Below, in pieces: positions 7,814-47,203 of a stretch of 64,000 bases of DNA. Source of the stretch: a virus. The DNA is taken from the IMG/VR virus record IMGVR_UViG_3300021475_000011, positions 3,534-67,533 of that record. The stretch is one strand, 5' to 3'. Positions within the stretch are counted from its first letter, which is position 1. The number at the start of each line of letters is the position of its first letter. The translations under genes were made by a program, and so were the position numbers. The notes below the pieces were generated by a model. That model searched no databases, had not been told where the DNA came from, and saw only the letters and a list, made by a program, of their open reading frames with translations.

Positions 7814-8811
7814 TGCCACGCGGGGATGCTGAACGCGATCGGTGTGGTGGCGCTCGACGGTGCGTAGCCAGCGCCGCCGGCGTAGCTGGCCGTCAGGGTC
7901 GTGGTGCCAGCTTCGACGGTGGCGATCGGCAGGTCCAGCGTGTTGCCCGTCGCGGGCGCGATGTTCACCGACTGCGGGTAGTAGGCGAACTCGCCGAGCT
8001 GCCCGTCGTAGTTGCCGCGCGTGGCGATGACCGTCACCTTCAGGCTGCCTTCGAGCTGCACGCCGCCGGCGGTCACGACCGGCGCGCCGGGCGCCTGGTG
8101 GCCGTTGACGGTGGTGTGCGCGGTCACGGTCAGCGTGCCCGCGAGCGCCCATGTGTGGCCGTCGCCGTCGTAGCCTTCGATGCTCGGAGCAGGCAGCGCC
8201 GTGTAGGTCGCTTCGACGGTCGTGGTGGTGGTGAACGGTTCGATCTGCTCGACGCTCGTTTCGGTGACGGTCGTTTCACCTGACGAGTAGGTGACGACGA
8301 CGGTGTGCGCGCCGGTCGCCTGGTAGGTGACAGGGCAGGTGCCGCCTTCGACGCCGTTGCCGACGTTGATGCTGCACTCCAACGTGCCGTCGCTGTAGAG
8401 CGTCAGCACGCCTTCGGGGAGCGGCTGCGCGCCGTGTTCGTCGAACGCGCCGGCGTCGTAGCTGTAGGTCACGGCCAGCGGGTTCGAGGGGTCCTGCGTG
8501 AACGACGGGTCGAGCTTCGCGCGGAGCTTGTGAGCGGGCGCGGCCGGTGCGGCGGCGGCAGGCGTGGCGCCCGCCGGCGTCGTGCCGATGCAGTCGAAGT
8601 GCTTGACGTGGGTCACGACCATGACCGGGACGCGGTGGCCGTGGACGCGGTGGTAGACCGTCCTCAGCTTGCCGTGGACGCGGTGCGTCTTCGGGCGCTT
8701 GACGGTGACGGTCGTGATCTTGCAGCCGGCTGCCGGTGCTACACCGTAGTTTGTAGCACCTGCGAGTGTGGCGAGAGCGGCGAGTGAGAGTGTCTTTATG
8801 GAAGTGGTCAT
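7810..8811 (-). CDS. secreted Ig-like domain protein
   Basis: N-terminal signal peptide, K/H-rich Cys-bounded segment, then Thr-rich beta strands (PEGVLTLYSDG...GAHTVVVTYS; LTASYAGGAGYAPS) resembling bacterial Ig-like group 3. Confidence 0.65.
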   Translation of the reverse strand: MTTSIKTLSLAALATLAGATNYGVAPAAGCKITTVTVKRPKTHRVHGKLRTVYHRVHGHRVPVMVVTHVKHFDCIGTTPAGATPAAAAPAAPAHKLRAKLDPSFTQDPSNPLAVTYSYDAGAFDEHGAQPLPEGVLTLYSDGTLECSINVGNGVEGGTCPVTYQATGAHTVVVTYSSGETTVTETSVEQIEPFTTTTTVEATYTALPAPSIEGYDGDGHTWALAGTLTVTAHTTVNGHQAPGAPVVTAGGVQLEGSLKVTVIATRGNYDGQLGEFAYYPQSVNIAPATGNTLDLPIATVEAGTTTLTASYAGGAGYAPSSATTPIAFSIPAWQ

Positions 8812-8874
8812 GGGTACAGCATCGCAACCTCGCGGGGGATTGTCAAGGCGGGTGACACCCTACTGGACGGATGA
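8799..8874 (-). promoter_or_regulatory. leaderless promoter with operator (8841-8857) and conserved 5' motif
   Basis: Minus strand: TCATCCGTCCAG...TTGACA-N17-GATGCT-N6-ATGACCACTTCCA. Confidence 0.75.
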
Positions 8875-12904: not shown

Positions 12905-13491
12905 GAGCGAACACGAACCGACATCGTGGCGGCCATCTGCGCCTCGCTGCCGTCCTCGAAGACCACGCGGACCCTGCGGTGGATGCGCTCGGTCGAGGCG
13001 ATCGTGCGCCACTCGCCGTCGTGGCGAATCGTCAGGCCCGAGTACAGCTCGTTGGCGTCCATCGGCTTCACGGGCGGCTTCGTCACGACCTCATCCCACG
13101 GGTACTGACGGGCGAGCGAGGCGACGTGCAGCGCTTCGCGGTCGTACTCGTCGGCCAGCTCGGCAGGCGCCGGCGGGATGCAGCCACGGTGGCGAGCATC
13201 CACGCGCAGGACTGCCTCCGTGCGGACCTGCTCGTCGGTCGGCTGCTCGCGGCCGGCGCTCAAGAGCCAGCCCTGCCCGTCGTAGGTGGCGCCACAGCCG
13301 GCGCAGGTGTGGGTCTGCTCGCCGCCGAACGGCACGTCCTCGATCGTCGCGCCGCATGTGCAGTCGTAGCTTCCGTTGGCGCGCTGACCCTGCGGGACGT
13401 TGCGGTCGCGGTGCCAGGCGAGCTTCTTCACTTCGATGGTGACGGGAGCGGTGGCGCTCATGGTGTGGTCCTCTCGGGTGGAAGTGGTCAT
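12901..13491 (-). CDS. Zn-ribbon protein
   Basis: CTCG...CAGCG; leaderless MTTS start at 13491 or SD-led in-frame ATG at 13461. Confidence 0.6.
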   Translation of the reverse strand: MTTSTREDHTMSATAPVTIEVKKLAWHRDRNVPQGQRANGSYDCTCGATIEDVPFGGEQTHTCAGCGATYDGQGWLLSAGREQPTDEQVRTEAVLRVDARHRGCIPPAPAELADEYDREALHVASLARQYPWDEVVTKPPVKPMDANELYSGLTIRHDGEWRTIASTERIHRRVRVVFEDGSEAQMAATMSVRVRS

Positions 13492-13545
13492 GTCAACTAT
13501 GGTGACACTCGCGGGGTCAGGCTTCAAGCGCTCTGGACGAACGTA
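13479..13545 (-). promoter_or_regulatory. leaderless promoter with operator (13491-13507)
   Basis: TTCGTCCAG...TTGAAG-N17-CACCAT-N7-ATGACCACTTCCAC; TGTCA-N7-TGACA covers -10 to +1. Confidence 0.7.
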
Positions 13546-13556
13546 TGAGAACAGCA

Positions 13557-13930: not shown

Positions 13931-14232
13931 CAGCGGTTCTCGATCGAGCGGAGCTCGCCGCCGGCGTCGGTGAAGCGGCCAAGGCGTCGGGCCGACTCGC
14001 CGTTGCCGCGTAGCAGGTTGCCGGGGAGCGCGTGCAGGATGGTCGGGTCGTCGCGGTGGCGCATCAGCAGGAACTCGGCGCCGCGCTTGCCCGTGAGCAG
14101 GTAGGGCAGCTCGGCGGCTGTGCTCTCGCCCTCGCGGCTGGTCACGGTGTACTCACGCGGGCTGAGCGTGTGCGAGTCCTTCACGACGACGATGCTGGTA
14201 GCTGCTGTGTGGTGATCCGTGGAAGTAGTCAT
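13930..14232 (-). CDS. hypothetical protein (leaderless MTTS start)
   Basis: ATG at the predicted +1 of the promoter. Confidence 0.6.
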   Translation of the reverse strand: MTTSTDHHTAATSIVVVKDSHTLSPREYTVTSREGESTAAELPYLLTGKRGAEFLLMRHRDDPTILHALPGNLLRGNGESARRLGRFTDAGGELRSIENR

Positions 14233-14286
14233 GTCAAGCATGGTGACACGCTCGACGCCCAACCACAACCCCTCTGGACGGACGTA
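14220..14286 (-). promoter_or_regulatory. leaderless promoter with operator (14232-14248)
   Basis: TCCGTCCAG...TTGTGG-N17-CACCAT-N7-ATGACTACTTCCAC. Confidence 0.7.
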
Positions 14287-18712: not shown

Positions 18713-19701
18713 CAGGTCCGCTCGGCGAAGAACGCGGCCAGCTCGGCGATCTGCTCGCCGGTGGCTTCTTGGATGTCGGAGAGGCCCATCTGTGTCAGCT
18801 TGGCAACACATTCGGCGCGAGTGCAGGACGAGTCGGCGTAGGCGACGCGCAGCGCCACGATCGGGTCCTGCGCCTCGGCAAGCGCGGCGTCCGCCTCCGC
18901 GTCGTCGCCGGCGGGCGCGCCCTGCGCTTCGGCGTCGGCGTGCGCGGCCTCCTGCTCAGCGACCGCGCCATCGGTGTCGGTGTCGCCGCTCGGCTGCTGC
19001 TGCTCGTCCTCGGCGGGATCGGGCGGGACCTCGGGCAGCTCCGCCTCGATGTCGCCCTGCGCCTCCGTCACGTCGCCGTGGTCGAGCGGCTGACCGAAGC
19101 GCTCCACGACGGTCGCCATGCGCAGCCAGCCGCCATAGCGCTGCCTCAGCTTCACTTCGGTCTTCGACGGCAGATACCACTTCCCGCCGACGAACTGAAG
19201 TTCGGTCGCCTCGACGTACAGGCGCGGCGCGAAGTAGAGAAACGCGCCGATGCCGTACTTGACACACGCGCGCTTGAAGGCGTCACTGTGAACACCCTTG
19301 AGCGCCATGTCGCCGTTCTTGCCAAGCTCCTCCGTGCCGACGTAGCTCACGTCCGAGCGTTTGCGGTCGAAGACCTCGAGCACGCAGTTCACGCCGAAGC
19401 CCTTGGCGCCGGCGGGATACAGCGGGCCGTAGCCGTCATCCCACGCGCCCGGCGTGACGACGTTCAGGCGCTCGGCCGCGGTGCGCGCCTCGATGTAGAC
19501 GACGACGAGGCCCTTCCCGAAGCTCGCCTGCTGACCCTCGCCCTTCTTCTTCGGGTTGACCTGAATCTTGAAGCTCACGGCCTCCGGTGTGAACGGGCGG
19601 CGGAACAGCGGCATCGCCTCGTCGAGCGACTTGGCCGGGTGAATGACCTCGCCCTCGGGCTCTGCCGGCTCCTGCTCAGCCGGTGGTGCTGCGTCGGCCA
19701 T
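18712..19701 (-). CDS. Rad52/Rad22-family (Sak-like) ssDNA-annealing protein
   Basis: RPFTPEAV...YIEARTAAERLN...KGVHSDAFKRACVKYGIGAFLY. Confidence 0.88.
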   Translation of the reverse strand: MADAAPPAEQEPAEPEGEVIHPAKSLDEAMPLFRRPFTPEAVSFKIQVNPKKKGEGQQASFGKGLVVVYIEARTAAERLNVVTPGAWDDGYGPLYPAGAKGFGVNCVLEVFDRKRSDVSYVGTEELGKNGDMALKGVHSDAFKRACVKYGIGAFLYFAPRLYVEATELQFVGGKWYLPSKTEVKLRQRYGGWLRMATVVERFGQPLDHGDVTEAQGDIEAELPEVPPDPAEDEQQQPSGDTDTDGAVAEQEAAHADAEAQGAPAGDDAEADAALAEAQDPIVALRVAYADSSCTRAECVAKLTQMGLSDIQEATGEQIAELAAFFAERT

Positions 19702-19925
19702 CAGTGACGATCGCCGGCGGGGAAGACCTCGAAGCTGCTCCTGCACGTCAGCACGTCGTCGCGGTCCATGATCGACTTGTTGATGGCGTCCTCGATCGCG
19801 GGCACGTCGCCGATGCTGTCAGCCTGCACGCGGACGGTGAACGTGATCGGGTAGCCGTTGGCCTCCCAATCCTCCTGCTCGGCGGTGCGCGGGTCCTGCA
19901 TCGGTGCGGTGCTCGGCTCATCCAT
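19701..19925 (-). CDS. hypothetical protein
   Basis: GGAGG RBS, MDEPSTAP... Confidence 0.55.
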   Translation of the reverse strand: MDEPSTAPMQDPRTAEQEDWEANGYPITFTVRVQADSIGDVPAIEDAINKSIMDRDDVLTCRSSFEVFPAGDRH

Positions 19926-20232
19926 CGGGCGCTGCCTCCTGTAGATCGGTGGTGGTCGGGACGGTCCCGAAGGGGATGTGAAAGAAGCGCTCAAGCATGA
20001 CGGCGAGCAGGCCGATCGTTTCGAGCAGCGGCAGCTCGCAGCGCGCGATGTGCCGGGCCTCGTCGCGGCCGTAGTCGAGGCCGCGCTGCCACGCCTTTGC
20101 AAAGCGCTCGGGGTCCATGTGCAGCAGCGCGTTCAGCGGATTGGCGCCGCGCTTCTCGCACTCCGCGCAGCCATCGCGCAAGAGCTGGTCGGGGTGAAAG
20201 CCGGGCAGCTCCTCGTGGTAGTCGTGGGCCAC
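19918..20232 (-). CDS. hypothetical protein (leaderless GTG start)
   Basis: TGt-CAGGCT-N7-GTG; operator at 20232-20248 overlaps the start. Confidence 0.6.
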   Translation of the reverse strand: MAHDYHEELPGFHPDQLLRDGCAECEKRGANPLNALLHMDPERFAKAWQRGLDYGRDEARHIARCELPLLETIGLLAVMLERFFHIPFGTVPTTTDLQEAAPDG

Positions 20233-20250
20233 GTCAAGCAGCCTGACAGG

Positions 20251-20303
20251 TCGAAGAAAAGGCTGCCCGCCCGGCGACCACTTCCACGCGATGCCGGGCG
20301 GGC
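20251..20303 (-). terminator. intrinsic terminator whose loop carries the complement of the conserved 5' leader motif
   Basis: 11-bp stem GCCCGCCCGGC/GCCGGGCGGGC followed by AGCCTTTTCTT on the minus strand; loop contains GTGGAAGTGGTC. Confidence 0.75.
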
Positions 20304-20337
20304 CTCGGCCCACTCACCGAAGCTGAGCAGGACAAGA

Positions 20338-21219
20338 TCATGGCGCGACCGCCGGGGTGACATCAACGGCGACGATCAGCGACTCGGGGCCCGCGGCCAG
20401 CGCCGACAGGACCGTCTCTCGCCACTCGCGCTCGCTCGCGCCCTCCTCCAACCACTCGCCGCCGGCGCACAGCGCGAACGGCAGGCCGACACGGCGGCGT
20501 TCGATCAGGTCGCGGTAGAGCGTCGAGGTCATCACGTTGGGATCGCCCGAGATTTCTGCGGGGTCGGCGTTCAGGTCGCCGTACTCGTCGCGCAGGAAGA
20601 ACGCCGTGAACTGGCCGCCGATCGTCCAGCTCTCCCACTTCCCGGCCGGGTTGCGCCTGGTCGTGTAGACGCCCGTCCCGCCGCACAGGCCGCAGTCGTC
20701 GCGCAGCTCCGGGCTCACGTCGATGCCGCACTCGGGGTCCGGCTTGCCGTAGGCGTCGTGGGTGCGCGCCAGCTCGTCGATCGCCTCAGCCTTCGCGGCG
20801 TTGAAGTTGTCCCACACGTCGGCGAGCTGGTCGTCAGCAGCACGGATCGCCTCCGCGTCCGGCGGCGGCCACAGGCCGAGCTCGCGGAGCTGTTCGACGC
20901 TGCCCTCGTGCTGAGCGATGCGCTTCACCGTCTGTTCGGCGTGCGTGTTGGTGGGATCGACCGACCACGCCAGCAGATGAACAGCGCGCGTCTTCGCGCG
21001 GACCTCCTCGGCGACCTCGCGGCTGAACTCGTCGCGGCCGTTCACGATGTCGGTTGCCCACTGGACGGCGGCGCGGCCAACACACGAGCAAGGCGACTCC
21101 CACGGATCGACGAGGCGCGCGTTGTCGAACGGCGCGAGCGCGTCGTCCACCATCCGAGCGATCCCCGAGTGCTCGATCACGTCGCCGCTGACGACGACCG
21201 CTGCAAGAAGGTGACGCAC
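20338..21219 (-). CDS. conserved phage hypothetical protein
   Basis: CGLCGGTG...RNPAGKWESWTIGG resembles the NPxxKWDW..GG phage family. Confidence 0.65.
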   Translation of the reverse strand: MRHLLAAVVVSGDVIEHSGIARMVDDALAPFDNARLVDPWESPCSCVGRAAVQWATDIVNGRDEFSREVAEEVRAKTRAVHLLAWSVDPTNTHAEQTVKRIAQHEGSVEQLRELGLWPPPDAEAIRAADDQLADVWDNFNAAKAEAIDELARTHDAYGKPDPECGIDVSPELRDDCGLCGGTGVYTTRRNPAGKWESWTIGGQFTAFFLRDEYGDLNADPAEISGDPNVMTSTLYRDLIERRRVGLPFALCAGGEWLEEGASEREWRETVLSALAAGPESLIVAVDVTPAVAP

Positions 21220-21222
21220 GGC

Positions 21223-21249
21223 TCAGCGGCGAGTAGTGGAAGTGGTCAT
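21223..21249 (-). CDS. 8-aa leaderless leader peptide MTTSTTRR
   Basis: ATG ACC ACT TCC ACT ACT CGC CGC TGA at the predicted +1; stop is 3 nt before the next GTG. Confidence 0.5.
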   Translation of the reverse strand: MTTSTTRR

Positions 21250-21316
21250 GCCCTGCATCCTGCCAGCCGATCAGACGGGTGTCAAGGGACTTGTCGCGGA
21301 CTGGACGGATGACGTA
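21237..21316 (-). promoter_or_regulatory. leaderless promoter
   Basis: TCATCCGTCCAG...TTGACA-N17-CAGGAT-N7-ATGACCACTTCCAC; degenerate operator at 21280-21296. Confidence 0.75.
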
Positions 21317-21969
21317 TCGAGCTGGCGCAGGCCACCGCTGCGAAGCTGCGCGCGGCGCGGGCGCGGCGCCTCCAACTCCGCGCGATCAACGCCGGCGAGC
21401 GCGAGCTGCTGATCCTCGATCGAGCGCCGGCGCAGCGCCAGATAGCTTTCGCGCTCCTGCGCCCGGAACGTGGCGATCCCCCCGCCGCCACGCAGCGCAT
21501 CGCGCCACGCTGCCCGCCTGGTCCTCGTCATCCACTCGTCGATCAGCGGGTGCGACCATGCGCTCGGCTTACGGATACGACTCGGCCGACACTCACAATC
21601 CGCCGTGGTCGTCGCCGCCGTGGTGGTCGTGACCTCCACGAACCCGCTGCCGTCGCAGCGCTTCAGCGGACAGTCACCCTCGAACGCCGCCGGCATCGGC
21701 AGCAGCACACGGCCTTCGACCTCGACAAGCACCTGATCCCACTCCGGGGTCGGAGACGCCAGCTCGAGCGCACGGGCCGCGATCATGCCGCCCGTCGGCG
21801 GGTGCTCACGGCCAGCGGTGGCGAAGCTCAGCACGACCGCCGTAGCGGTGTCAGCGGCGACACCCTCGACGAGCGGGAACTGCACCGCTGCCGCCTCGAC
21901 CGGGATTGGTGCGTGCGGCCACAGGCCACGCATCCGGGCGACGAGCTCGGTCCACTCGCTCGGCTTCAT
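21271..21969 (-). CDS. helicase loader/inhibitor (G39P-like) protein
   Basis: MKPSEWTELVARMRGLWP...HPPTGGMI...; follows the initiator gene; CDGSG..CEC Zn site. Confidence 0.55.
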   Translation of the reverse strand: MKPSEWTELVARMRGLWPHAPIPVEAAAVQFPLVEGVAADTATAVVLSFATAGREHPPTGGMIAARALELASPTPEWDQVLVEVEGRVLLPMPAAFEGDCPLKRCDGSGFVEVTTTTAATTTADCECRPSRIRKPSAWSHPLIDEWMTRTRRAAWRDALRGGGGIATFRAQERESYLALRRRSIEDQQLALAGVDRAELEAPRPRRAQLRSGGLRQLDTSSVQSATSPLTPV

Positions 21970-22832
21970 TCGCCGCGCGCCCGCTGCTCGTCGGCGATCC
22001 GCTGCAAGGCGTCCATGTCAGACCCCGCTCGCTCCCGCGCCGAGCCACCGGCGCGCTTGCCTTCGACCTCCTGCCTGATCTGCAAGACGAGAGGCGCCCA
22101 CTTTTCGCGGAGCTTCGGCATCGACCGGATGTTCGCTGCCCAAAAGTGGTGAGAGGTCGCCCATGTGATGACGTATTCAACCTGCCGGACAGAAGCGCCG
22201 TCAAGGTCAAGCAGCCGCCTTGCCGCATCGTGCCACTTTTTCGTGTGTGGATTCGGCCGAGGCCCACCGGCGCCCTGCGCCTCCAAGGCGTCAGCGAGCA
22301 GGTCGCAGAGCTTGGCGACCTCCGGGCGATCGACGGCGAGCTCGTCTTGATCGTGGTCGTCTTCGCCCTGGTCGCCGTCGGGCGGCACGACCGACGAAAC
22401 CCCCGCAGGGGGTAGTTCCTCTTCCCTTCCCTTCCCTTCCCTTCCCCCCTGTAGTGCTACAGGAGGACTACTGTAGTCGTCTCGTATCGACCCCTCAGCG
22501 CCGGGCGGCGGCAGCTTCGATTTGGTCGGCTTCTGGATCGCCTGGTGCTTGTTGAAGTTGGTCACATGCAGGTACTTTTGACCGCCGTGGACGTAGCGCG
22601 TGATGGCGCCCGTCGAGGCGATCAGCGAGAGCCACAGGTCCACTTCGTCGGCGGTCACGTCGTCGTCGTAGGGGAACACGTTGGACTTGACGACGTGCGG
22701 TCGGCCGCGCTGGCGGCCCTCGTCGTCCGAGTGTTGGATCAGGCCAATGAACAGCAGCCGGCAGTCGCGTGGGAGAGCGCCGATCGCCTCGTCTTCCCAC
22801 AACTCCGGCTTGATAGTCCTGATCCTCGCCAC
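21966..22832 (-). CDS. phage replication initiator protein
   Basis: ARIRTIKPELWEDE...RLLFIGL...DDEGR; GREGKGREE linker; FWAANIRSMPKLREKW. Confidence 0.85.
   Translation of the reverse strand: MARIRTIKPELWEDEAIGALPRDCRLLFIGLIQHSDDEGRQRGRPHVVKSNVFPYDDDVTADEVDLWLSLIASTGAITRYVHGGQKYLHVTNFNKHQAIQKPTKSKLPPPGAEGSIRDDYSSPPVALQGGREGKGREEELPPAGVSSVVPPDGDQGEDDHDQDELAVDRPEVAKLCDLLADALEAQGAGGPRPNPHTKKWHDAARRLLDLDGASVRQVEYVITWATSHHFWAANIRSMPKLREKWAPLVLQIRQEVEGKRAGGSARERAGSDMDALQRIADEQRARGE
22417..22478. repeat. (CTTCC)n tract plus two short palindromes; candidate origin
   Basis: CTTCC tandem repeats, then CCTGTAGtgCTACAGG and GACTACtGTAGTC inside the initiator linker. Confidence 0.4.
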
Positions 22833-22971
22833 CGCTGCTCCCTCGTCCTGCGAGGCGATGGCGTCCGTCTCACCGGATAGCTTCTCGTGCTCGCAACTCT
22901 GATCGGTGGCGAAACCTAGCGCGCGGCGTGGACACGTTCCCGTCGCGCGCTGCTTGTTCCGGGGTTTTTCT

Positions 22972-23214
22972 TCAGGCGGCCACGCGCTCGTCAAGCAGCT
23001 CGTAGAGCGCCTGACGGCTGATCCCGAGGCGACGTGCAGCCTCAGTGATCGTGACGGCCTCCTTGTCGTGCGGGTCGGCCTGCGCCTTCACCTGCTTGAC
23101 CACTTCGCGGGTAAGCTCCTGCAACGCCGCGTCGTTCTCGTCTCGCAGTTCACGGCGGACCCCGATCCGGTCGAGCTGCTGTCGTAGGTCTACTGCGGCC
23201 ACGGTGCTCTCCAC
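22972..23214 (-). CDS. small HTH protein (Cro-like)
   Basis: TITEAARRLGISRQALYELLD; first gene of the replication operon. Confidence 0.75.
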   Translation of the reverse strand: MESTVAAVDLRQQLDRIGVRRELRDENDAALQELTREVVKQVKAQADPHDKEAVTITEAARRLGISRQALYELLDERVAA

Positions 23215-23229
23215 TGTCGGGTTACTTGT

Positions 23230-23300
23230 CGTCCTCCATCTTGACAGGTCCAGCGGCGGCGTCGCCCTGGTTGACAGTCCATCCGGCGCGCAGGCTACCG
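23230..23300. promoter_or_regulatory. divergent control region with two degenerate operators
   Basis: CGTCC-N7-TGACA (23230-23246) and CGTCG-N7-TGACA (23260-23276); two TTGACA hexamers on the plus strand. Confidence 0.5.
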
Positions 23301-23311
23301 TCGGGATACCA

Positions 23312-23563
23312 GTGTCCGACTCGATCTACGACGCACCGAATCCTGACGCGCCCGAGCAGCAGCCGGCCTTCGTCCTACAGCGCCCGCCCGGCCAGCGCTC
23401 GAACCTCGCGCATCTGCTGTGGGCCACGCTCGTCGCCGTGCTGCTGTTCTTCGCGCTGTGCTCGGCCGTCGCCGGCGGCGCGCTGCTCGGCGGTGTCGGC
23501 GGCGCGCTGCTCGCGCTCGCGGTGAGCCTCGCCTACGTTGCGCACCTGATCGACTCAGCCTGA
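23312..23563 (+). CDS. small membrane protein (2 TM)
   Basis: Hydrophobic LLWATLVAVLLFFAL...GALLALAVSLAYV. Confidence 0.6.
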   Translation: MSDSIYDAPNPDAPEQQPAFVLQRPPGQRSNLAHLLWATLVAVLLFFALCSAVAGGALLGGVGGALLALAVSLAYVAHLIDSA

Positions 23564-23565
23564 CC

Positions 23566-23985: not shown

Positions 23986-23987
23986 GT

Positions 23988-24050
23988 GCGCGGCGGGCGG
24001 TCAGGGGATGAGGGAGAACGCCCGCCGCGCGGCTCACCGTGGGGATGAGC
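23988..24050 (-). ncRNA. candidate two-hairpin C-rich sRNA (6C-like architecture)
   Basis: Extended -10 TGcTACCTT (24058-24066); hairpins GCTCATC-CCCAC-GGTGAGC and a 12-bp stem with loop TTCTCCCTCATCCCCTGAC. Confidence 0.45.
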
Positions 24051-24174: not shown

Positions 24175-24834
24175 CTACCCCGTGAGCGCCTTCAGCGCGT
24201 CGAACCGCGCCTGCCTGTTGAGGATGTGCCAGCCGTTGCGCTGCGACTTCGCTACCTTCTCGATCGCTTCGGCGCGCGCGATCATCGTCCGCTTCAGCAC
24301 CACGCGCCGGCGGTGAGCAGCGAGCGAACGGTGCCCGCGCAATGTCTCCCACTCCCGGCGCCAGCGCTGCTCGTCAGCGGGCACGTAGGGCGGCTTGGCG
24401 ACCGCCGACAGGAAGACCCTGCGCTCGGCCTCGCGCCTGATCTTCAGCCCTTCCACGACCTCGCCGCCAGCGTGGTCGTAGGCGAGCATCGAGTTGGCCG
24501 CGGCCAGCCAGTTCCGGGCGCGCAGCTCGGCGCCGATCGTCGTGCCCTGGAAGATGCCAGCGCCGAGGTTCCATGTGAACGAGCACAGCGCGTCCCACTG
24601 ATCCTGATTCAGCTCGACGCCGAGCGCCCGGATCGACGGCTCGTAGTAGCGCTCGATGCGGGCCTTCAGGTTGGTGCTGCCCTGCGTCACGGTGATCGCC
24701 GGCGAGCCGCTGTGGATGCCTTCCGTTTCGCCGAAGCCGCGCGTCCACACGCCGCCGAGCGAGTCCCAATAGGGCTTCGACGAGAACCCCTCGAAGCGCT
24801 CGATCAGGAGTAGTCCTGCGGGGCTGATGTGCAT
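24175..24834 (-). CDS. GH24 phage lysozyme (endolysin)
   Basis: LIERFEG...YWDSLGGVWTRGFGET, NQDQWDALCSFTWNLG, GLKIRREAER; basic C-terminal tail. Confidence 0.93.
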   Translation of the reverse strand: MHISPAGLLLIERFEGFSSKPYWDSLGGVWTRGFGETEGIHSGSPAITVTQGSTNLKARIERYYEPSIRALGVELNQDQWDALCSFTWNLGAGIFQGTTIGAELRARNWLAAANSMLAYDHAGGEVVEGLKIRREAERRVFLSAVAKPPYVPADEQRWRREWETLRGHRSLAAHRRRVVLKRTMIARAEAIEKVAKSQRNGWHILNRQARFDALKALTG

Positions 24835-33439: not shown

Positions 33440-36400
33440 TCACATTCCCACTCCCACGCCGATTAGGTCGGTGAACTCCTGTTGATTGAACTGGAACCCG
33501 AGCGACCCGCCGGCGTTCGTCATGGCGTTTGCCATTGCCTGCGTCGCGCTCTTTGTCTCTTCCTGCACCTGCAACTGCGCTTCGAGTATCTTGTTCTGCT
33601 GGCCGGCGATGGCTTCCGCGATCTGTTCAGCGAGCTTGGAGTCGCCCTGTTCTTCGGCCGTTTTCTTTTCGTTGACGAGGGCCGTCAGTTCCTTTTGCAG
33701 CGCGGGGAGAATCTGCTTGTTGATGTATTCGGCGCGCTGTTCCCCGCCCGTTTCGTAGGTGCCCGCGAGCTTCTGATGCAGTTCGAGTGACTGCAAGCCG
33801 CTCTCGGCCATGTTGGTCTGATGCTCCGCAATTTCGGTGAGAAGGTGAGCCTGCGTCTCCGCTGCCTGCCGTGTGAGGTTGGCGATTTCCGCGCTCGTGT
33901 TGGCGATGTCGGTCTGCTCGCTCAGTATCTTCTCTTGGATTTCTTCCGCGCCCTTCGTGTCGCCGACGCTCATGTCGGCGTTGTACTGACCGCCGAGGCC
34001 CGCGAGAACCTGCTGCATCGCGGGGAGCTGCGCCTGCTGCATTTCTGCCGCGCGCTGGCGCATTTCCGAGGGTGATTCTTCGCCGTGGTTGGTGATCGAC
34101 CGCACAGCCTGGTTAAGCGCCATCTGCCCCTGCACCATCGACAAGGACCGTTCGGCGTGTTCGGTCACTTCGGCGGCCTGCCGCTCGACAAGTTCGCGCG
34201 CCTTCTTGGCGATGTCCACGGCGGCGGCCTGCACGCTCGCGGCGATCCCCTCGAGCTGCGCCTTGATCTGTTCGGCGTCCTGCGTGTCGCCGGCGGCTTC
34301 CGCCTGCTGCAACGCCGCCTGAAGCTGCCCCTGCTGCTGCTGGCCGACGCTGACCGCGAGCTGGTCCTGCGCCATTTCCGAGCTGATCGCGCCCGAGCTC
34401 CCAGCTTCCACGCCGGCGACTTCGTTGGCCTGCTGCCGCGCGACGCCGGCGCGTTCGAGCGCGGACTGCTCATCGTTCACCTGCTTGACCATCGCGCCGA
34501 CGCGCTGCCCGACCGCCGCCTCGACGAGTCCGAGCGAGCTTTCCAGCCGACGGATGCTGACCTTCGACCCGTGGTGGGCCTTCAGCTTGGCGACCTGCGC
34601 CTTGATGCTCGACGCCATCTGATCGAGCTGGCCGAGCGTGATGGTGCCGCTGTCCGCGACCGCCTGATTCATCTCGTCGATCTTGCCTTCGAGGCCCTTG
34701 ATCTGAGCGGGCTTCGCGTGGTGCGCCTTCAGCTTGGCGAGCTGCTTCTTTAGGCCCGCGGCCATCTTCTTCAACTCGTTCTGGACGGCCTTGCTCGTCC
34801 CGTCGAGGATGCCCGACAGTTCGCCGAGCGCGTTGTTGGCTTCGGGTCCTGTGTTGCTCGCGCCTTCGGCTTCGCTGATCGCGCCGCCGGCCGCGCGCGC
34901 GACGCCCTGCGACATGAACTTGCCGACGGCGCCGCCGGGTAGCGCGCCTTCGAGCGGAGCGGACACGGCCGCGAGCTGCTGCATGGCTTCGCCGAGCGTC
35001 GAGGCGACGCCGGACAGGCCGCCGCTCATGCCCTTCTTGCCTTTGCTCGCGTGGTGGGCAGCGGTGTGGTGCGCGGTGACTTTGTGGATCGCCGAGTGAT
35101 GCACCGCTTTGGGATGCAGGTGGTTGGCGACGTGGACGCTGTGGTGGCTCGTCGCGCTGTGCGCAGCGGGCCGTTTCACATGGCCGCCACGGCGCAGGCC
35201 GAACCCGACGAACCGTGGGCTGTCGGGGTCCAGCATGGATTCGCTGACGCCGCCGGGAGACATGCGCAGGCTGCTCGCCACGGCGCTGCGTGCGTTCGGA
35301 CCCATGCCCACCATCCCGCCACGGTTGAAGCGCCGTGGAGCGCGCCCTGTGCGCCTCACACGGCCGCCACGGCGAAGGCCGGGCGGGTGCCGGTGGATCG
35401 GGAACACACCGTCCCAGCCCTGGTCGATGTGGACTTCAGGCTTGCCCTGCGACCCGCCTCCACCACTCTCTACGCCGGCGCTGCCCATGCGGATCATCGT
35501 GTGCGCGTTTTCGCCGGTGGTGCCACGCACGCCGACGGTCACGAGCTTGCCGTCGCCGGCGAGTCCCCAATTCTTCAGGCCGGTGGTCGTCATCGGCGTG
35601 TTCGTCAGGCCGCCCGCGTGCAGCACGTAGGACACCGCGCCCGAGCAGTCATAGCCCGAGCTCGACCACGACCCATGACCGCCGCCGTAGACGTAGGGCT
35701 TGCCGACGATCGACTCGGCCGCCGACGCCATCGACAGGTACTCGCTCCACGCCTTCGCGCCTATGCCCTTCGGCCGCGTGCGCGCGATCGACCCGCCGCC
35801 TTCAGCGCCGCCGCCGGCGGGCGCCACTTCGCCTTCCTGAAGCGCGCGCATCGTCACCTTCGCTGACGCCTTGGCCGCGGCCAGGATGCCCGTCGTGGAG
35901 AGCGGCTGCCCCTTCAACCCGGCCTGGTAGCCGGTCTGGAACGCCGACACGGGGTTCAGCGGCGAGCTCGACAGTTCGGGGAGCTTGATGCTGGCGTTGC
36001 TCGTCGCCTTCGCCGCGCCGCCCGTGACCTCCGTGAACTTCCCGATCGCGTCGGTGGGGAACTTCGTCGGGTCGAAGCCCATCAGCTTCGCGGCAGCGCC
36101 GGTGATGTCGCCGACGCGCCAGCCCTTCGGGCCTTTGGCGTCAGGTCCCTTGTCGATCACCTTGAAGTTGCCGCTGTGCCCGGCGACTTCGACGTGGAAC
36201 AGCTTGCCCGCGAGCGCGCGTGCTTTCGCGTCGTTCCAGTTCGAGCCGCCGTCGGGGTTCAGCGCCAGCCCTGCGCTGCTCGAGCTGCCGCCGTAGGCGG
36301 TGGTGCCAGCCGCCTCGCCGGGAGGACCGAACGTCGAGACGGGACCGCTGAAGCTGACGCCGTGCAGCTTTTCCTTGTAGGCAGCTTCGGCCTGGTGGCG

Positions 36401-39175
36401 GGTGTATTCGCTGTGCTCCTTCGCTGTCATGTGCAGCGTTTCACCCGTCTTGCTGTTGAAGTACGTGTTCACCGATTCGGGTTTCTTGCCCTTCTTCGTC
36501 TTCGGTTCCGGCGCGACCCAACCGCCGGTAGCGAAGTGCGGCGCCTGGTTGGACGCCAGGTGGTCGAGCAAGCCGGGCGCGTGCTGTTCCATCATCGCCT
36601 GCCCCGGCCCTGTGACCACGAACTCGTTGCCCGAGAGCAGCGCGAGCGTGCCGTCGCGGTGGGGATCGCCGGGCACCCATCCACCGCCCGCCAAGCCGAG
36701 GATGTTGCCGACCCCTTCGACGCCGCCCTTCAGCGCGCCGAGAGCTTTTTGCGCCAGCCCGAAGCCGGGGATTTTCTTCAGGGCCTTCATTATCAGCGGA
36801 CCCGCCTGCTCGACGCCGGACACAAGCCCTTCGATGATCTGCTTGCCGATCGACAGGAACCGGCCGGGCAGGCTCCCGAGGAACCCGATCACGCTGTTGA
36901 ACGCGCCTTCGATCGCCTTCAATATCTGAGGCCCGAAGTTCAGGGCGACCGCGACGACCGGCGCGAAGGGTCCGGTCAGCAGCGGCACGAGCAGCTTCCA
37001 GTGGTCGCCTATGAACCCGATCACGGCTGAGACTGCCCCGCGGATCGTGTCGAAGACGGTGGTGAAAACGCTCTTGATGATGTTCCAGCCAACGGTGACG
37101 ACGGTCTTCACCACGTCAAAGCCGGTCGTCCAGATCGCCTTCTGCACAGCCCACCACGTCTTGACCACAGTTTCGACGGCGCCGAGCGCGGTGGAGAACA
37201 CCGTTTCGATCACCTTCCACGCGGTCGTCACGAGCGTTTCGAGTATCTGCAACTCGGTCGTGAAGATGGTCGTGATGACCGTCCAGTAGGTCTTCACCAC
37301 AACTTCGATCGCCTTCAGCGCCGTGGAGAACGCCTGCTTGATGATCTTCCACGAGCTGACGACCACGCCGACGACGACGCCCATTGCCACCTTCACGAGA
37401 TTGCCCATCGGCGAGAAGACCTTGCTCAGAATCCCACCGAAGCCGCGCACCATGTCGATCACCGGCGCGAACACCTTGCCGAGAAACGGGACGGCCTCAG
37501 TGATCTTGCCGAGCGACGCGACCGCGCCAAGAATCTCGCCCGAGAAGACAACGCCCAACACCTTCCCGATCGTTTCGATGGTCTTCTTGAACGGGGCGAG
37601 CAGCGTGCCGACGGCACCGAAGGCGGGCGCCAGCAGCTTCACGGCGCCGGCGAGCAGCTTGATCCCGCCGATGATGGCGATGCCAACCCCCTCGGCGACG
37701 CCCTTCAGCAGCGGCAGCAGCACGTTCTTGAAGAACGGCATCGCCGGCGCGAACGCGCTGAGCAGTTCCTTCCCGGCCTTCAGGGCTTCCTTGCCGAACG
37801 TCGCCAGAGCAGCGCCGACCGGACCCTTCAGCACCTTGCCAACCTCAGTGATCGCGCCGAGGATCACCACCTGCAACAGCGCGCCGAGCGGCTTGATAAG
37901 CGGTGTGACGGCGCTCAGCAGTTTGACAAGCGTCGGCCCGAACGCCTGCGCAAAGCTCAGCTCTATGCCGGTGCTCGCGGCCTTCAGCGCCACAAAGCTC
38001 TCCTGCATGTGCTTGAGCGTGTCGGGGTTGATCGACGGCATGTCCGCGCCGACGGTGGCGAGCCGGCCGTGCTTGCCCGAGAGCGGGCCGCTCGCCTCGA
38101 GGACGCCGGCCATCTGCGCGCCACGGCCGAGCATCGTCCGCATGACGCTCGCGCCTTCGGCGGCCGGCAGCTTCAAGCTGCGCTGCGTGATGAGGTCGTA
38201 CAGCGCGGGGAGGTTGTTCTGCTGGCGCTTCAGTTCGGCGGGGCTGATGTTGAGCTTGGCGAACGCTTCGGTGCTCGTGTTGGCTTTGCCTTCAGCCTGC
38301 CCCTTCAGCGCTTTGGTGGCCTGCCCGCCGGCGGTAGCGAAGCTCATGCCGAGCGTGCGCGGCTGGACGCCGGTGGCTTCCGCGATCACGGCCAGCGCCA
38401 TCGCTTCGCGGGATTTCAGGTGCGTGGCGCGTTCGAGCTGCAAGGTGTTCTCGGTGATCGTGCGCGACTTCTTCAGGCCCTCGTACACAGCGCCGGCGCC
38501 GAGCGCGCCCACGCCGACGAGGCCAGCGCCCACACCGGACGCGACGTGGCCGCCGAAGCTGGCGACGCCGGCGGCTGCTCCCTTCAGGCCAGAGCGCACG
38601 CGCGCGCCCCGTGACGGCGCGCCGGCGGCCGACTTGATCGCCTCAGCTTCGCGGCGCGCTGCGGCCTCCACAGCGGCGGCAGCCTCGTCGGCGCTCTTGC
38701 CGCGCAGCGCCGCCGAGTCTTGCGCCATCTTCGCAATCTCCTGATAGGTCTTGCCCACGTCGCGGAGCGCAGCGATTTCCTGCTGAGACGCCTTGTCCGT
38801 GGCCGCTGCCGCCTCAGCCCGACTCTTCGTAATCAGGTCGTCAGCGGACACCGCTGCGCTGCTGAGGGCCTTCCACTCGTCGGCGCTGGCCTTCACGCTG
38901 TCCGCGACCTTCTTCTGCGAGGCGACCATCGCGTCGCTGCTCGACTTCACAGCGGCCGTCTGCTTGGCGACCGCGCCAGCGATCGAGGTTGTGGCCTTGA
39001 CCGCCTGCGCGCCCGTCTTGCCGTACTCGGCGCCCGAGAGCTTCAGGATCGTGTTCGTCTCCGCGATCGAGTCGCGGACGGTCTTCTGCGCGCCGGTGAT
39101 CTTCGCGGTGCCGTCGTCCTGCGCGGTGAGCACATAGCGAATAGCGACCTCCTCGACCTCGCTACTCATCGCCAT
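33440..39175 (-). CDS. tape measure protein with RlpA-like and NlpC/P60-like domains
   Basis: 1911 aa, helical with periodic W/F repeats; GKPYVYGGGH...YDCSGAVS; VIDKGP. Confidence 0.92.
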   Translation of the reverse strand: MAMSSEVEEVAIRYVLTAQDDGTAKITGAQKTVRDSIAETNTILKLSGAEYGKTGAQAVKATTSIAGAVAKQTAAVKSSSDAMVASQKKVADSVKASADEWKALSSAAVSADDLITKSRAEAAAATDKASQQEIAALRDVGKTYQEIAKMAQDSAALRGKSADEAAAAVEAAARREAEAIKSAAGAPSRGARVRSGLKGAAAGVASFGGHVASGVGAGLVGVGALGAGAVYEGLKKSRTITENTLQLERATHLKSREAMALAVIAEATGVQPRTLGMSFATAGGQATKALKGQAEGKANTSTEAFAKLNISPAELKRQQNNLPALYDLITQRSLKLPAAEGASVMRTMLGRGAQMAGVLEASGPLSGKHGRLATVGADMPSINPDTLKHMQESFVALKAASTGIELSFAQAFGPTLVKLLSAVTPLIKPLGALLQVVILGAITEVGKVLKGPVGAALATFGKEALKAGKELLSAFAPAMPFFKNVLLPLLKGVAEGVGIAIIGGIKLLAGAVKLLAPAFGAVGTLLAPFKKTIETIGKVLGVVFSGEILGAVASLGKITEAVPFLGKVFAPVIDMVRGFGGILSKVFSPMGNLVKVAMGVVVGVVVSSWKIIKQAFSTALKAIEVVVKTYWTVITTIFTTELQILETLVTTAWKVIETVFSTALGAVETVVKTWWAVQKAIWTTGFDVVKTVVTVGWNIIKSVFTTVFDTIRGAVSAVIGFIGDHWKLLVPLLTGPFAPVVAVALNFGPQILKAIEGAFNSVIGFLGSLPGRFLSIGKQIIEGLVSGVEQAGPLIMKALKKIPGFGLAQKALGALKGGVEGVGNILGLAGGGWVPGDPHRDGTLALLSGNEFVVTGPGQAMMEQHAPGLLDHLASNQAPHFATGGWVAPEPKTKKGKKPESVNTYFNSKTGETLHMTAKEHSEYTRHQAEAAYKEKLHGVSFSGPVSTFGPPGEAAGTTAYGGSSSSAGLALNPDGGSNWNDAKARALAGKLFHVEVAGHSGNFKVIDKGPDAKGPKGWRVGDITGAAAKLMGFDPTKFPTDAIGKFTEVTGGAAKATSNASIKLPELSSSPLNPVSAFQTGYQAGLKGQPLSTTGILAAAKASAKVTMRALQEGEVAPAGGGAEGGGSIARTRPKGIGAKAWSEYLSMASAAESIVGKPYVYGGGHGSWSSSGYDCSGAVSYVLHAGGLTNTPMTTTGLKNWGLAGDGKLVTVGVRGTTGENAHTMIRMGSAGVESGGGGSQGKPEVHIDQGWDGVFPIHRHPPGLRRGGRVRRTGRAPRRFNRGGMVGMGPNARSAVASSLRMSPGGVSESMLDPDSPRFVGFGLRRGGHVKRPAAHSATSHHSVHVANHLHPKAVHHSAIHKVTAHHTAAHHASKGKKGMSGGLSGVASTLGEAMQQLAAVSAPLEGALPGGAVGKFMSQGVARAAGGAISEAEGASNTGPEANNALGELSGILDGTSKAVQNELKKMAAGLKKQLAKLKAHHAKPAQIKGLEGKIDEMNQAVADSGTITLGQLDQMASSIKAQVAKLKAHHGSKVSIRRLESSLGLVEAAVGQRVGAMVKQVNDEQSALERAGVARQQANEVAGVEAGSSGAISSEMAQDQLAVSVGQQQQGQLQAALQQAEAAGDTQDAEQIKAQLEGIAASVQAAAVDIAKKARELVERQAAEVTEHAERSLSMVQGQMALNQAVRSITNHGEESPSEMRQRAAEMQQAQLPAMQQVLAGLGGQYNADMSVGDTKGAEEIQEKILSEQTDIANTSAEIANLTRQAAETQAHLLTEIAEHQTNMAESGLQSLELHQKLAGTYETGGEQRAEYINKQILPALQKELTALVNEKKTAEEQGDSKLAEQIAEAIAGQQNKILEAQLQVQEETKSATQAMANAMTNAGGSLGFQFNQQEFTDLIGVGVGM

Positions 39176-45544: not shown

Positions 45545-47203
45545 CTATTCGGTCTTGATCCCCCTGCACACGACGATGCCCGCGCCCGGACGGCGGTGGG
45601 CGATGTCGCCGATCAACTCAGCCCTGAAGAGGGTCTGACGGTTCTGGAAGGCGTTGATCCACGTCGTCCCCGCGTCGGGGGTGTAGGACGCCTCGCTTGA
45701 GCTGTCGAGGGTGAGCTCGCGGCTCTCGCCCACGTACAGGTTGTTCATGTCCACCAACGCGACGTAGGTGGCCGCCGAGCTCGTGCCCCTGGTGAGGTTC
45801 GACGGAATCTGCGTGGTCGTGTAGAAGGGAATCTTCCACAACGTCCCTGTGCGCTGGTCGGGGTTGACGGTCAACTGCCCGCTCTCCAACAGGTAGCGAC
45901 CCTCGTTGTCCTTCAAGCCCTCGAGCTGATTGATGAGGATGGGGTTGAAGAACCACGCGAGGCGCGGCTGCTGAAGGTTGAACGTGCGGTACGTGGCGAC
46001 GATGTTGCGGGCAATGTCGTCGTCGAAGAACGAACCGTTCGTTGCGATCCCCAGCCGGGTCGTCACATCGACGAGCGACCCGTTGTTCAGGATGCCGAGA
46101 GGCTGACCACCTTCGCCGGACCCCTGCAAGAAGCCGAGGTCCATACCCAGCGCCATGATGAGCACGAGGTCTTCACGGATGATCCGCTCTGCGTCCTCGA
46201 GGCCCACGCGCGATGTGTCACGCAAGAGCTGGTTGGACGCCGGCACCAACGCGGTGAGGCTGTGCGGCGAGAGCAGCGGCGTGTCGATGAAGCTCTCCTG
46301 CGAGGGCGGAGTCGCCGCGTTCTCCGTGCCCCAGTACACCGTGCCTGCGGCCGACAGGGCGACGCTGTGCAGCGACTTCCCGATCGGGATTGTGCGCGGG
46401 CCCGCGGCCATGACCACGGTCGCCGGGCGGAGCAGCGACAGAACGTCGCTCATCCACTCGGGCGGCACGAGGAACCCACCGCTCGCGTCGGTGCTCTCGG
46501 CGAGCGCCTTCAGCTCGAAGTCGCGGGCCATCCCGCGCTTCATGCGGTCGATCGCGCCCATGAACAGCGCGAAGCTCTTGCTCTCCATGAACTCCTTGAC
46601 GCCCTTGTCCACGCCACCGCGCAGCGTCTCGCGGTTCTGGACGGTCAGGCCCTTGCCCTGCTCGAGCTGCGCGGCGAAGTCCTCCGACGCGCCGGGGAAG
46701 ACGAGCCGCGACGGTGAGCGCACGTCCTTCAGGACGGCGGCCACAGCCTCGGACATCGGCTGACCCTGCATCGCCTTCTCGACCTCCTGCCGCATCATCG
46801 TCGCCATCGCCTCCTGCTGAGCGACCTGCGCGGCCTTCGTCTGCTCGACGACGCCGGCAGCGACCACGGCCATCGACTCACGCATCGAGTGGTCGGCCAG
46901 GGTCTTGCGGAGACGCTGAAGCTCCTGCTCCGGTGTCTCGTTCTCGGGGATCGCCGGCGCGGACTTCGCCGCCTCGGCGGCTGCGACGGCGGGGTCGGTG
47001 GCGCCCGGCGCGGCGGCCTGCCCGACGGCTGCCGCTGCTGCGGCGGCGTCGGCGCTCATCTGAGCGACTGCCTCGGGGGTCGTCCCCGACTTGGCGAGCT
47101 GGTCCCTGATCTGCTCGAGGACCGCCGTGGCGTCCTCGCCCATCGTCGGGAGGCCGCCGTGGAGCCGAATGTGCTCCGAGTACGTCATCGGTCGGCGCTT
47201 CAT
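45545..47203 (-). CDS. major capsid protein (HK97 fold) with N-terminal delta domain
   Basis: GGFLVPPE, LEGLKDNEGRYL, GTLWKIPF, NAFQNRQTLFRAE; GGAGG RBS; TAATCT -10 at 47327-47332. Confidence 0.93.
   Translation of the reverse strand: MKRRPMTYSEHIRLHGGLPTMGEDATAVLEQIRDQLAKSGTTPEAVAQMSADAAAAAAAVGQAAAPGATDPAVAAAEAAKSAPAIPENETPEQELQRLRKTLADHSMRESMAVVAAGVVEQTKAAQVAQQEAMATMMRQEVEKAMQGQPMSEAVAAVLKDVRSPSRLVFPGASEDFAAQLEQGKGLTVQNRETLRGGVDKGVKEFMESKSFALFMGAIDRMKRGMARDFELKALAESTDASGGFLVPPEWMSDVLSLLRPATVVMAAGPRTIPIGKSLHSVALSAAGTVYWGTENAATPPSQESFIDTPLLSPHSLTALVPASNQLLRDTSRVGLEDAERIIREDLVLIMALGMDLGFLQGSGEGGQPLGILNNGSLVDVTTRLGIATNGSFFDDDIARNIVATYRTFNLQQPRLAWFFNPILINQLEGLKDNEGRYLLESGQLTVNPDQRTGTLWKIPFYTTTQIPSNLTRGTSSAATYVALVDMNNLYVGESRELTLDSSSEASYTPDAGTTWINAFQNRQTLFRAELIGDIAHRRPGAGIVVCRGIKTE

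Follow-up and report, generated by a model that had tools for sequence, protein, structure and literature searches.

Anatomy of the locus

The window analyzed here, 64 kb in length, comes from the IMG/VR record IMGVR_UViG_3300021475_000011, a virus sequence that totals 67.5 kb and has an estimated completeness of 59%. It is part of an uncultivated soil phage; the sequencing runs that contain its DNA are soil metagenomes. The GC content is about 0.69 and nearly all the genes are carried on the minus strand. The object of this report is an open reading frame (ORF) of 8 codons, the micro-ORF, located between a predicted promoter and a gene coding for a 293-amino acid protein, together with the promoter and start codon cassette to which it belongs. 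The cassette was found at four sites, A (ATG 21249), B (ATG 8811), C (ATG 13491), and D (ATG 14232). Homologous proteins are identified by P-numbers. Site A, which includes the micro-ORF, has the following features.

21300..21309, minus strand: upstream conserved element, TCCGTCCAGT, with a core, CGTCCAG, found at all four sites
21280..21285, minus strand: −35 hexamer TTGACA, with TTG invariant at the four sites
21257..21265, minus strand: extended −10, TGG-CAGGAT, with TG, A-11, and T-7 invariant at the four sites
21236..21250, minus strand: invariant block C-ATGACCACTTCCAC, which takes in nucleotides +1 to +14 of the predicted transcript, +1 being the A of ATG 21249
21223..21249, minus strand: micro-ORF MTTSTTRR and its TGA (ATG ACC ACT TCC ACT ACT CGC CGC TGA)
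20338..21219, minus strand: gene for the 293-amino acid protein, opening at GTG 21219

The CAGGAT hexamer itself occupies positions 21262–21257, with a 17-nucleotide spacer from TTGACA and a 7-nucleotide spacer to ATG 21249. The 17-nucleotide spacer also contains the TGA stop codon (21271–21273) of an upstream ORF of 232 amino acids. The TGA of the micro-ORF is followed by GCC and then by GTG 21219, leaving a gap of 3 nucleotides. No purine-rich Shine–Dalgarno (SD) sequence is present in the 18 nucleotides before GTG 21219, which would be located 30 nucleotides into the predicted mRNA. This arrangement is the one described in an earlier annotation made by a model from the letters alone (the sequence-only reading), and its remark that the 293-amino acid gene is not preceded by a clear SD was equally correct. 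That annotation overlooked, however, that the micro-ORF and the 293-amino acid ORF are in the same frame, with only the TGA and one alanine codon between them. At the four sites the sequence TG-nAnnnT is followed after 6–7 nucleotides by ATG, as in leaderless transcripts of the actinobacterial type. Sites B, C, and D lack an SD; the −10 of site A itself contains AGGA. With 8 codons, and as the first cistron counted from the predicted +1, the micro-ORF is within the size range of leaderless small ORFs (5–50 codons).

A 9-bp perfect inverted repeat (21231–21223 and 21191–21183, within 21183–21231 of the minus strand) encloses the GTG start. One arm, CGCCGCUGA, is formed by the last two micro-ORF codons and the stop, and pairs with UCAGCGGCG in codons 10–13 of the gene. 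Reinitiation could depend on the unwinding of this repeat by the ribosome translating the micro-ORF. The fold of the 100 nucleotides around the GTG was not better than those of shuffled sequences (z = −0.40).

Four copies of the cassette

A search of the window for ATGACCACTTCC with up to one mismatch produced four occurrences, all on the minus strand (ATG 21249, 14232, 13491, and 8811), the number expected from shuffles being 0.07. Alignment of the four sites identified the invariant columns TTG in the −35, TG in the extended −10, A-11, T-7, and C-ATGAC.ACTTCCA; thus, C-ATGACYACTTCCA is common to the four promoters. The remaining nucleotides of the −35 (TTGACA, TTGACA, TTGAAG, and TTGTGG) and −10 hexamers (CAGGAT, GATGCT, CACCAT, and CACCAT) differ, as do the flanks and all sequence after codon 5. 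The promoter call at the cassettes rests on this conservation of the TTG, the TG of the extended −10, A-11, and T-7 at the four sites. The distance between the CGTCCAG element and the −35 is 14–15 nucleotides at sites A and B and 4 nucleotides at sites C and D. The sister sites are as follows.

14219..14282, minus strand: site D, with CCGTCCAGA, TTGTGG at 14268–14263, TGT-CACCAT at 14248–14240, and ATG 14232 (ATGACTACTTCCAC)
13461..13540, minus strand: site C, with TCGTCCAGA, TTGAAG at 13527–13522, TGT-CACCAT at 13507–13499, and ATG 13491
8798..8871, minus strand: site B, with TCCGTCCAGT at 8871–8862, TTGACA at 8846–8841, TGC-GATGCT at 8826–8818, a 6-nucleotide spacer, and ATG 8811 (ATGACCACTTCCAT)

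The cassette ATG is fused to an ORF of 100 amino acids at site D (13930–14232), to the ORF 12901–13491 at site C, and to a protein of 333 amino acids with a signal peptide-like N-terminus at site B (7810–8811). These fusions, and the number of copies relative to the expectation, agree with the earlier description of an MTTS start joined in frame to unrelated proteins at three sister promoters. The second, SD-led ATG reported at one of them is that of site C, where an in-frame ATG, 13461, is found at codon 11 behind GAGAGGA.

The site B product has 29 homologs, several of them on bacterial contigs of 370–430 kb and one annotated from a Solirubrobacteraceae metagenome-assembled genome (MAG). Its sequence relationships suggest a moron-like secreted protein that hints at the host lineage. 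Just upstream of cassette C there is a hairpin with a 9-bp stem (13557–13584, minus strand) and then a U-rich stretch. Upstream of cassette B, the region 8879–8934 (minus strand) includes a 16-nucleotide palindrome over the upstream stop codon and two copies of GGGCGCCC. Since these GC-rich hairpins and palindromes are likely terminators, cassettes C and B would open new transcription units.

Constraint on the nucleotide sequence and portability

The codons within the block are rare in this phage. Among the 28 genes of the window, ACT accounts for 25 of the 922 threonine codons (2.7%) and TCC for 73 of the 829 serine codons (8.8%). Nonetheless, codon 3 is ACT and codon 4 is TCC in the four cassette copies, although these copies are related by descent and are not independent draws. 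As the rare codons are kept while the flanks have diverged to background, selection at the level of the peptide alone is insufficient to account for the conservation. The proposal of the sequence-only reading that the nucleotide motif, rather than the peptide, is the conserved unit was therefore upheld by the rare synonymous codons found in all copies and by the divergence after codon 5. A functional peptide was rejected because nothing is conserved after that codon.

Homologs of the sister gene products were compared at their N-termini. P0011 (85% identity) begins MLD-MTTSTKLHTAANTVAIEVKK (MLD-MTTSTKLH...), P0012 (48%) begins MTTSTLTL, and P0013 and P0014 (85%) begin MTTSIKTL. P0015 (45%) begins MTTSTKENL, followed by a signal peptide of its own, MKRAIVCLILL. 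P0016 and P0017 (39–40%), which are relatives of P0015, start with MRRA and have no MTTS. The cassette is found before four unrelated genes in this phage and is present or absent among the homologs in its relatives, which justifies the term portable used previously. To judge from these N-termini, the cassette was set before pre-existing genes, where it was fused to them, put before a native start that was retained (site C and P0015), or closed by a stop codon (site A).

Other searches for DNA copies of the cassette were negative. Comparison of the region 19000–23000 with cultured phages by BLASTN gave no match, and protein-guided scans of viral, metagenome, and genome contigs did not identify a DNA relative of the 293-amino acid gene. 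A contig scan with P0015 detected only a relative lacking MTTS (L131). No matches were found in 301 genomes from the same order as a Solirubrobacterales MAG, or in this MAG. A 15-mer scan of viral contigs produced at least 118 single chance matches, none with promoter context, and a scan for CGTCCAG, a gap, and ATGACNACTTCC yielded 8 unrelated matches. The pattern combining promoter and block had no matches in viral contigs; its five matches in genome contigs were each to a cellular MTTS gene in a single copy and were read as chance.

Native start of the 293-amino acid protein

A word-indexed protein search with the 293-amino acid protein detected close relatives only. A profile search over 1.84 billion representatives (E ≤ 0.001) retrieved 632 proteins, of which 149 distant ones were listed. 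Among these 149, 119 begin with MSH and 11 with MHF, and MTTS is absent from the first 30 residues of all of them. In an alignment of 13 sequences, Met1 and His3 are invariant and are aligned with GTG 21219 and its third codon. The hydrophobic strand that follows the start is also conserved (LAAVVV here and xxVVLV in the family), and the RH-LAAVVV stretch is kept down to 25–31% identity. The alignment of Met1 and His3 and the conserved strand demonstrate that GTG 21219 is the native start of the family and that the region 21219–21153 is coding. P0001 (90%) and P0006 (87%) were called from the codon equivalent to GTG 21219 (MRH...). P0004 and P0005, the latter an identical sequence on a 72,944-nucleotide contig, were called from an internal ATG, 21153.

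One relative has a different arrangement. P0002 (56% identity) begins MMAG-MTTSTVSPGT-HQLAAVVV, with the cassette ATG joined in frame to the gene and a Gly in place of the native Met. The two Met codons before MTTST supply A and T at the A-11 and T-7 positions, at the same 7-nucleotide distance, which suggests, from the protein sequence, that the leaderless geometry has been kept in the phage encoding P0002. The invariance of His3 suggests a possible reason to keep the native N-terminus, but P0002 tolerates an extension.

The 293-amino acid protein belongs to a large uncharacterised phage family, mostly of 200–330 amino acids, with a near-invariant N-terminus (MSHF) and the motifs PYDEN...PC.CVG, a zinc knuckle-like C..CxGxG, NP..KWDWW.IGGR, and a C-terminal VD.HI. 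Two distant relatives have a sub-threshold match to the CXXCXGXG of DnaJ. Pfam and PHROGs contained no family for the protein beyond a weak PHROG match, and a protein atlas returned unnamed viral clusters only, below 0.9. An AlphaFold2 model made with 5 sequences had a mean predicted local distance difference test (pLDDT) score of 35 and was unusable.

Public gene calls disagree at three of the four cassette starts (for example, 293 versus 271 amino acids and 196 versus 186 amino acids), and upstream extensions, MLD- and MMAG-, have been called in relatives of the cassette genes. The disagreement is a systematic problem in the annotation of leaderless phage genes, and the split among gene callers at these starts serves as a lesson in this respect.

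The hairpin after the gene

The region following the 293-amino acid gene includes two features.

20265..20303, minus strand: GC-rich hairpin with an 11-bp outer stem, a weak 5-bp inner stem, and the apical loop GUGGAA
20276..20287, minus strand: GUGGAAGUGGUC, a perfect reverse complement, 12 nucleotides long, of cassette positions +3 to +14, in the apical part of the hairpin

The fold has a z score of −3.79. The sequence UUUUCUU starts 4 nucleotides after the stem, and the GC-rich stem, as in intrinsic terminators, is kept in relatives; a pattern scan did not list the hairpin. The pair 20298:20270 is C-G in this phage, U-A in a relative of about 90% identity (a compensatory change), and U.G in a relative of about 95%. 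The ~90% relative has four substitutions within 20257–20298. All of them would be non-synonymous in an overlapping ORF from GTG 20313, which argues that the hairpin is non-coding and that the next gene more likely starts at GTG 20232. From this comparison of relatives, the hairpin is a real RNA element. The listed ORF that overlaps it spans 19918–20313 (minus strand); a relative has a 3-nucleotide insertion at 20226–20227, and the ORF from GTG 20232 codes for 104 amino acids with no family match.

The 12-nucleotide complement is the only other copy of the block in the window, and 0.0029 are expected on the transcribed strand under a first-order Markov model. Energies of duplexes between the 5′ block and the hairpin (−23 to −34 kcal/mol) were within the range of random 30-mers (median −28.5, 5% tail −38.1). 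When cofolded with sites A, B, and C, the hairpin stayed closed, and 5′–3′ pairing was not favored by nested folding.

Proposed function of the cassette and alternatives

The interpretation toward which we lean, with confidence slightly better than even, is that the cassette is a portable promoter with a leaderless AUG, and that at site A the ribosomes terminate at the UGA and reinitiate at the SD-less GTG. The cassette would consist of the CGTCCAG element, a −35 TTGnnn, a 17-nucleotide spacer ending in TG, a −10 nAnnnT, 6–7 nucleotides, and ATGACYACTTCCA. The predicted mRNA begins at the start codon and would be leaderless. Usually, the cassette ATG would read in frame into the gene, adding MTTS(T/I) and a few linker codons to the protein. 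At site A, an in-frame TGA in the linker, one codon before the native GTG 21219, would create the 8-codon ORF. A 70S ribosome would bind the 5′ AUG, read the 8 codons, terminate at the UGA, and reinitiate 3 nucleotides downstream at the SD-less GUG, producing the native Met-Arg-His N-terminus. The micro-ORF peptide itself would have no function. The ribosome-loading module envisaged in the sequence-only reading fits this anatomy, a predicted leaderless AUG with a stop 3 nucleotides before an SD-less native GTG. SD-less junctions between a stop and a start occur elsewhere in the phage, where TGA is found directly before GTG 59480 and GTG 53923. For mycobacteria, each step has support in the literature. 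Leaderless translation there requires a 5′ ATG or GTG, which is also sufficient for it; annotated genes are preceded by leaderless small ORFs in hundreds of cases; and their coupling was proposed to load ribosomes onto the downstream ORF (PMC4633059). Scanning by 70S ribosomes is covered by a review (PMC9031893).

Several observations weigh against this interpretation. The sequence-only reading called the promoter canonical. The −35 and the spacing are indeed those of the consensus, but CAGGAT has just 3 of its 6 nucleotides in common with TATAAT, and a consensus promoter scan of 7000–24000 listed no promoter. ATG 21153 has an SD-like GGGGA 8 nucleotides upstream and was chosen by two gene callers. 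The N-terminal extension of P0002 is tolerated in the family, and so the stop codon need not be adaptive. That the TGA is shared by the clade at 87–90% identity is deduced solely from three gene calls at the same start codon. The hints about the host lineage are actinobacterial only: the DUF5131 protein encoded in the window is nearest to those of Gordonia and Mycobacterium phages (46–49% identity), and the site B product has its Solirubrobacteraceae MAG homolog. Efficient leaderless translation in the host is accordingly an assumption. The transcription start site (TSS) at A21249, the leaderless loading, and the reinitiation are steps that we infer. Finally, the mycobacterial study found no downstream sequence requirement for leaderless translation (PMC4633059). 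Since no downstream motif is needed, loading alone leaves the invariant 11 nucleotides after the ATG unexplained. Something other than loading must act on +1 to +14, and the candidates are an operator placed over the TSS and a recognition site at the level of the RNA.

The alternatives that concern the stop codon can be weighed on its conservation and surroundings. In a metagenome-derived record, a TGA affecting a single codon could have arisen in assembly, or could be a recent mutation that inactivates a gene on its way to being lost. This is extremely unlikely, as a separately assembled contig of 32,495 nucleotides, possibly from the source sample, is identical over 20150–21450, and a 199-nucleotide RNA-library contig obtained in a different study matches 21035–21233 exactly, TGA and GTG included. 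The latter contig ends at 21233, with no RNA cover of 21250–21293 in that one study of low depth, and was not used as evidence for the TSS. In addition, the same protein was called on contigs of 32,497 and 72,944 nucleotides, the relatives at 87–90% identity were called from the same codon, and the downstream ORF is intact with gene-like codon statistics. No indel separates the ~95% relative from this sequence between 20846 and 21422, and the differences listed around the micro-ORF are those common to both sequencing runs (21177, 21270, and 21298), none of them within a conserved element. If the stop is real, the shared frame would permit read-through or recoding of the UGA, joining the micro-ORF to the gene in an N-terminally extended protein such as the fused form that occurs naturally in P0002. 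We consider this quite improbable. TGA is the commonest stop codon of the phage, where it ends 18 of 28 genes, and a start codon is located at the native Met position of the family only 3 nucleotides after it. There is no known recoding signal at this location, searches of Rfam 15 at the gathering score gave no matches anywhere in the window, and the equivalent position in P0002 is Gly or Thr rather than Cys or Sec. Selenocysteine or another genetic code was rejected because TGA is the main stop codon.

Other alternatives assign a role to the invariant block itself. The 14-mer, perhaps with CGTCCAG, may be the DNA site of a phage or host regulator positioned over the TSSs of four co-regulated promoters. 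In that case ATG 21249 would play no meaningful part in translation, ordinary initiation by 30S subunits at GTG 21219, or at ATG 21153 behind GGGGA, would produce the 293-amino acid protein, and the 8-codon ORF would be a chance product of the operator sequence. The block is asymmetric and has one orientation at the four promoters, with a single inverted copy, a pattern also seen in the start-associated sequences (SAS) of Cluster K and the stoperators of Cluster A (PMC3203893). The CGTCCAG element shifts by about one helical turn between pairs of sites (4 versus 14–15 nucleotides), as is typical of protein sites, and the phage has an Xre-type helix-turn-helix (HTH) gene at 6421–6585 (minus strand). 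The SD-like sequence and gene calls at ATG 21153, and the lack of a downstream requirement in the mycobacterial study cited above (PMC4633059), point in the same direction. However, the ATG opens the frame of a real protein at the three sister sites and in at least six proteins of relatives, and is therefore a working start there. Moreover, the region 21219–21153 is coding, with RH-LAAVVV conserved down to 25–31% identity, and GTG 21219 is SD-less and 30 nucleotides into the mRNA. We regard this alternative as rather unlikely; operator and ribosome-loading roles can coexist. The translation sensor suggested in the sequence-only reading can be extended to a model in which the 5′ block, AUGACCACUUCCAC, pairs with GUGGAAGUGGUC in the 3′ hairpin or in a 3′-derived small RNA targeting all four leaderless mRNAs, blocking 70S loading unless a ribosome on the micro-ORF prevents the pairing. 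The perfect 12-nucleotide complement, with its low expected number, is found near the apex of a strong hairpin between genes, in which GUGGAA forms a 6-nucleotide loop. The stem has been kept in relatives, with a compensatory change in the one at ~90% and a G.U intermediate in the one at ~95%, and the four substitutions indicate that it is non-coding. Among the differences listed, none affects the 17 apical nucleotides in the ~90% relative. However, there is a single complement and the statistic is post hoc, 6 of its 12 nucleotides are paired or bulged inside the hairpin, the hairpin was closed in the cofolds, the duplex energies were those of random 30-mers, and 17 unchanged nucleotides are not significant at about 10% divergence. 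This sensor seems to us improbable. We hold equally modest expectations for the related idea that +1 to +14 is an RNA "address" carried by a small regulon of leaderless mRNAs and read by the loop of the terminator hairpin in cis, or as a 3′-derived small RNA in trans. Were this idea correct, one switch would decide for the four units together whether 70S ribosomes can reach the 5′ AUG, and the micro-ORF of site A would extend the control to a gene that needs its native N-terminus.

Relation to known systems

Leaderless small ORFs ahead of genes have been described in mycobacteria (Shell et al. 2015, PMC4633059; Canestrari et al., bioRxiv 10.1101/834739), with "coupled" ORFs and uORFs as their classes. 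The micro-ORF shares with them a −10 directly before the RTG, the absence of an SD, a tiny first cistron (5–50 codons), a stop at or next to the following start, and the conservation of the architecture rather than the peptide. It differs in being in a phage and not in a cellular genome, in being in frame with the gene, and in being fused to it in a relative. Relative to the "coupled" class as defined by Shell et al., the TGA-GCC-GTG junction has a 3-nucleotide gap and no RTGA overlap, which places it in the uORF class (PMC4633059). Furthermore, the first 14 nucleotides are invariant and common to three other promoters, whereas Shell et al. saw no downstream motif (PMC4633059). Unlike the poly-Cys attenuators, the micro-ORF has no amino acid-sensing composition.

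The repeated block can be compared with the SAS and extended SAS (ESAS) of Cluster K mycobacteriophages (Pope et al. 2011, PMC3203893), the function of which was still unverified in 2025 (PMC12699233). Like the SAS (PMC3203893), the block is a short, asymmetric repeat that marks gene starts in the non-structural part of the genome, with almost all copies in one orientation and a single opposite-strand copy, and both are located on unrelated gene families and conserved across diverged relatives. The SAS, GGGATAGGAGCCC, includes the SD and lies 3–7 bp ahead of the start (PMC3203893), whereas the block described here opens with the start codon and is SD-less. Our block is also tied to promoters and has 4 copies, in contrast to the 9–19 SAS copies per genome (PMC3203893). 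When the block, CATGACYACTTCCA, was compared with the SAS pattern (GGGATAGGAGCCC with up to 2 mismatches and AGGAG), it did not match, as it starts at the start codon and lacks AGGAG.

Cluster A stoperators, like the block, are asymmetric, orientation-biased sites on a 13-nucleotide scale that act on early or non-structural genes. Unlike it, they number in the tens and are located in intergenic gaps rather than at the +1 of their own promoters. Their sequences are not similar to the block. Morons are inserts in phage genomes composed of a promoter, a gene, and a terminator. Site A is comparable in being a self-contained promoter, one gene, and a hairpin between replication and recombination genes, and site B in driving a secreted-type protein with bacterial MAG homologs. 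Morons are not known to share one start cassette. A literature search, which was not exhaustive, turned up no account of a conserved leaderless start cassette in phages.

From these comparisons, the micro-ORF most resembles the known kind of leaderless small ORF ahead of a gene, and the repeated block appears nearest to the SAS in logic, but not in sequence or position. The case would combine a ribosome-feeding small ORF of the mycobacterial type with a repeated start motif of the Cluster K type. One cassette provides the promoter, the start codon, and 11 invariant nucleotides, and it has been kept across phages whose proteins have only 45–56% identity. The natural variants, in which it is fused, ahead of a retained SD-led start, or stop-closed, constitute a compact system. 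The questions that they raise are what constrains the first codons of leaderless mRNAs and if termination followed by reinitiation can generate a native N-terminus from a leaderless transcript.

Genomic surroundings

All four cassettes are located in the non-structural half of the phage. In the order of transcription, the surrounding genes are as follows.

33440..39175 and 45545..47203: tape-measure-sized ORF and capsid-like gene, respectively, among the structural and tail genes, which come first
24175..24834: endolysin, after the structural and tail genes
21966..22994: replication initiator, followed by the 232-amino acid ORF, immediately before site A
After site A: Erf-like annealing protein, DUF5131, and exonucleases, and then sister sites D and C
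After site C: small-terminase-like gene, and then sister site B
After site B: HTH gene and two large DNA methyltransferases

Neither an integrase nor a serine recombinase was detected in the record of 67.5 kb, within its estimated completeness, and no tRNAs were found in the window. The HTH_3 domain of the Xre/Cro type at 6421–6585 (minus strand, 48.8 bits) is part of an ORF of about 151 amino acids. This ORF is directly upstream of a 655-amino acid DNA methyltransferase (4286–6253), the called start of which it overlaps, and the second methyltransferase follows at 2641–4104. The HTH_3 protein, possibly a regulator of the controller type, is the sole clear DNA-binding protein found.

Another repeated element resembling a promoter, CTGTGTAAACTC(A/G)CCTGACA, is located at 59769–59784 and 63514–63529 on the minus strand, with a TG-extended −10, TAAACT. 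Two exact 16-mer copies are present (0.01 expected), each just upstream of a small gene of the early region, and one of them is followed by a GGAGGG SD and GTG 59753. The CTGTGTAAACTC elements look like a different, leadered promoter family of the same phage.

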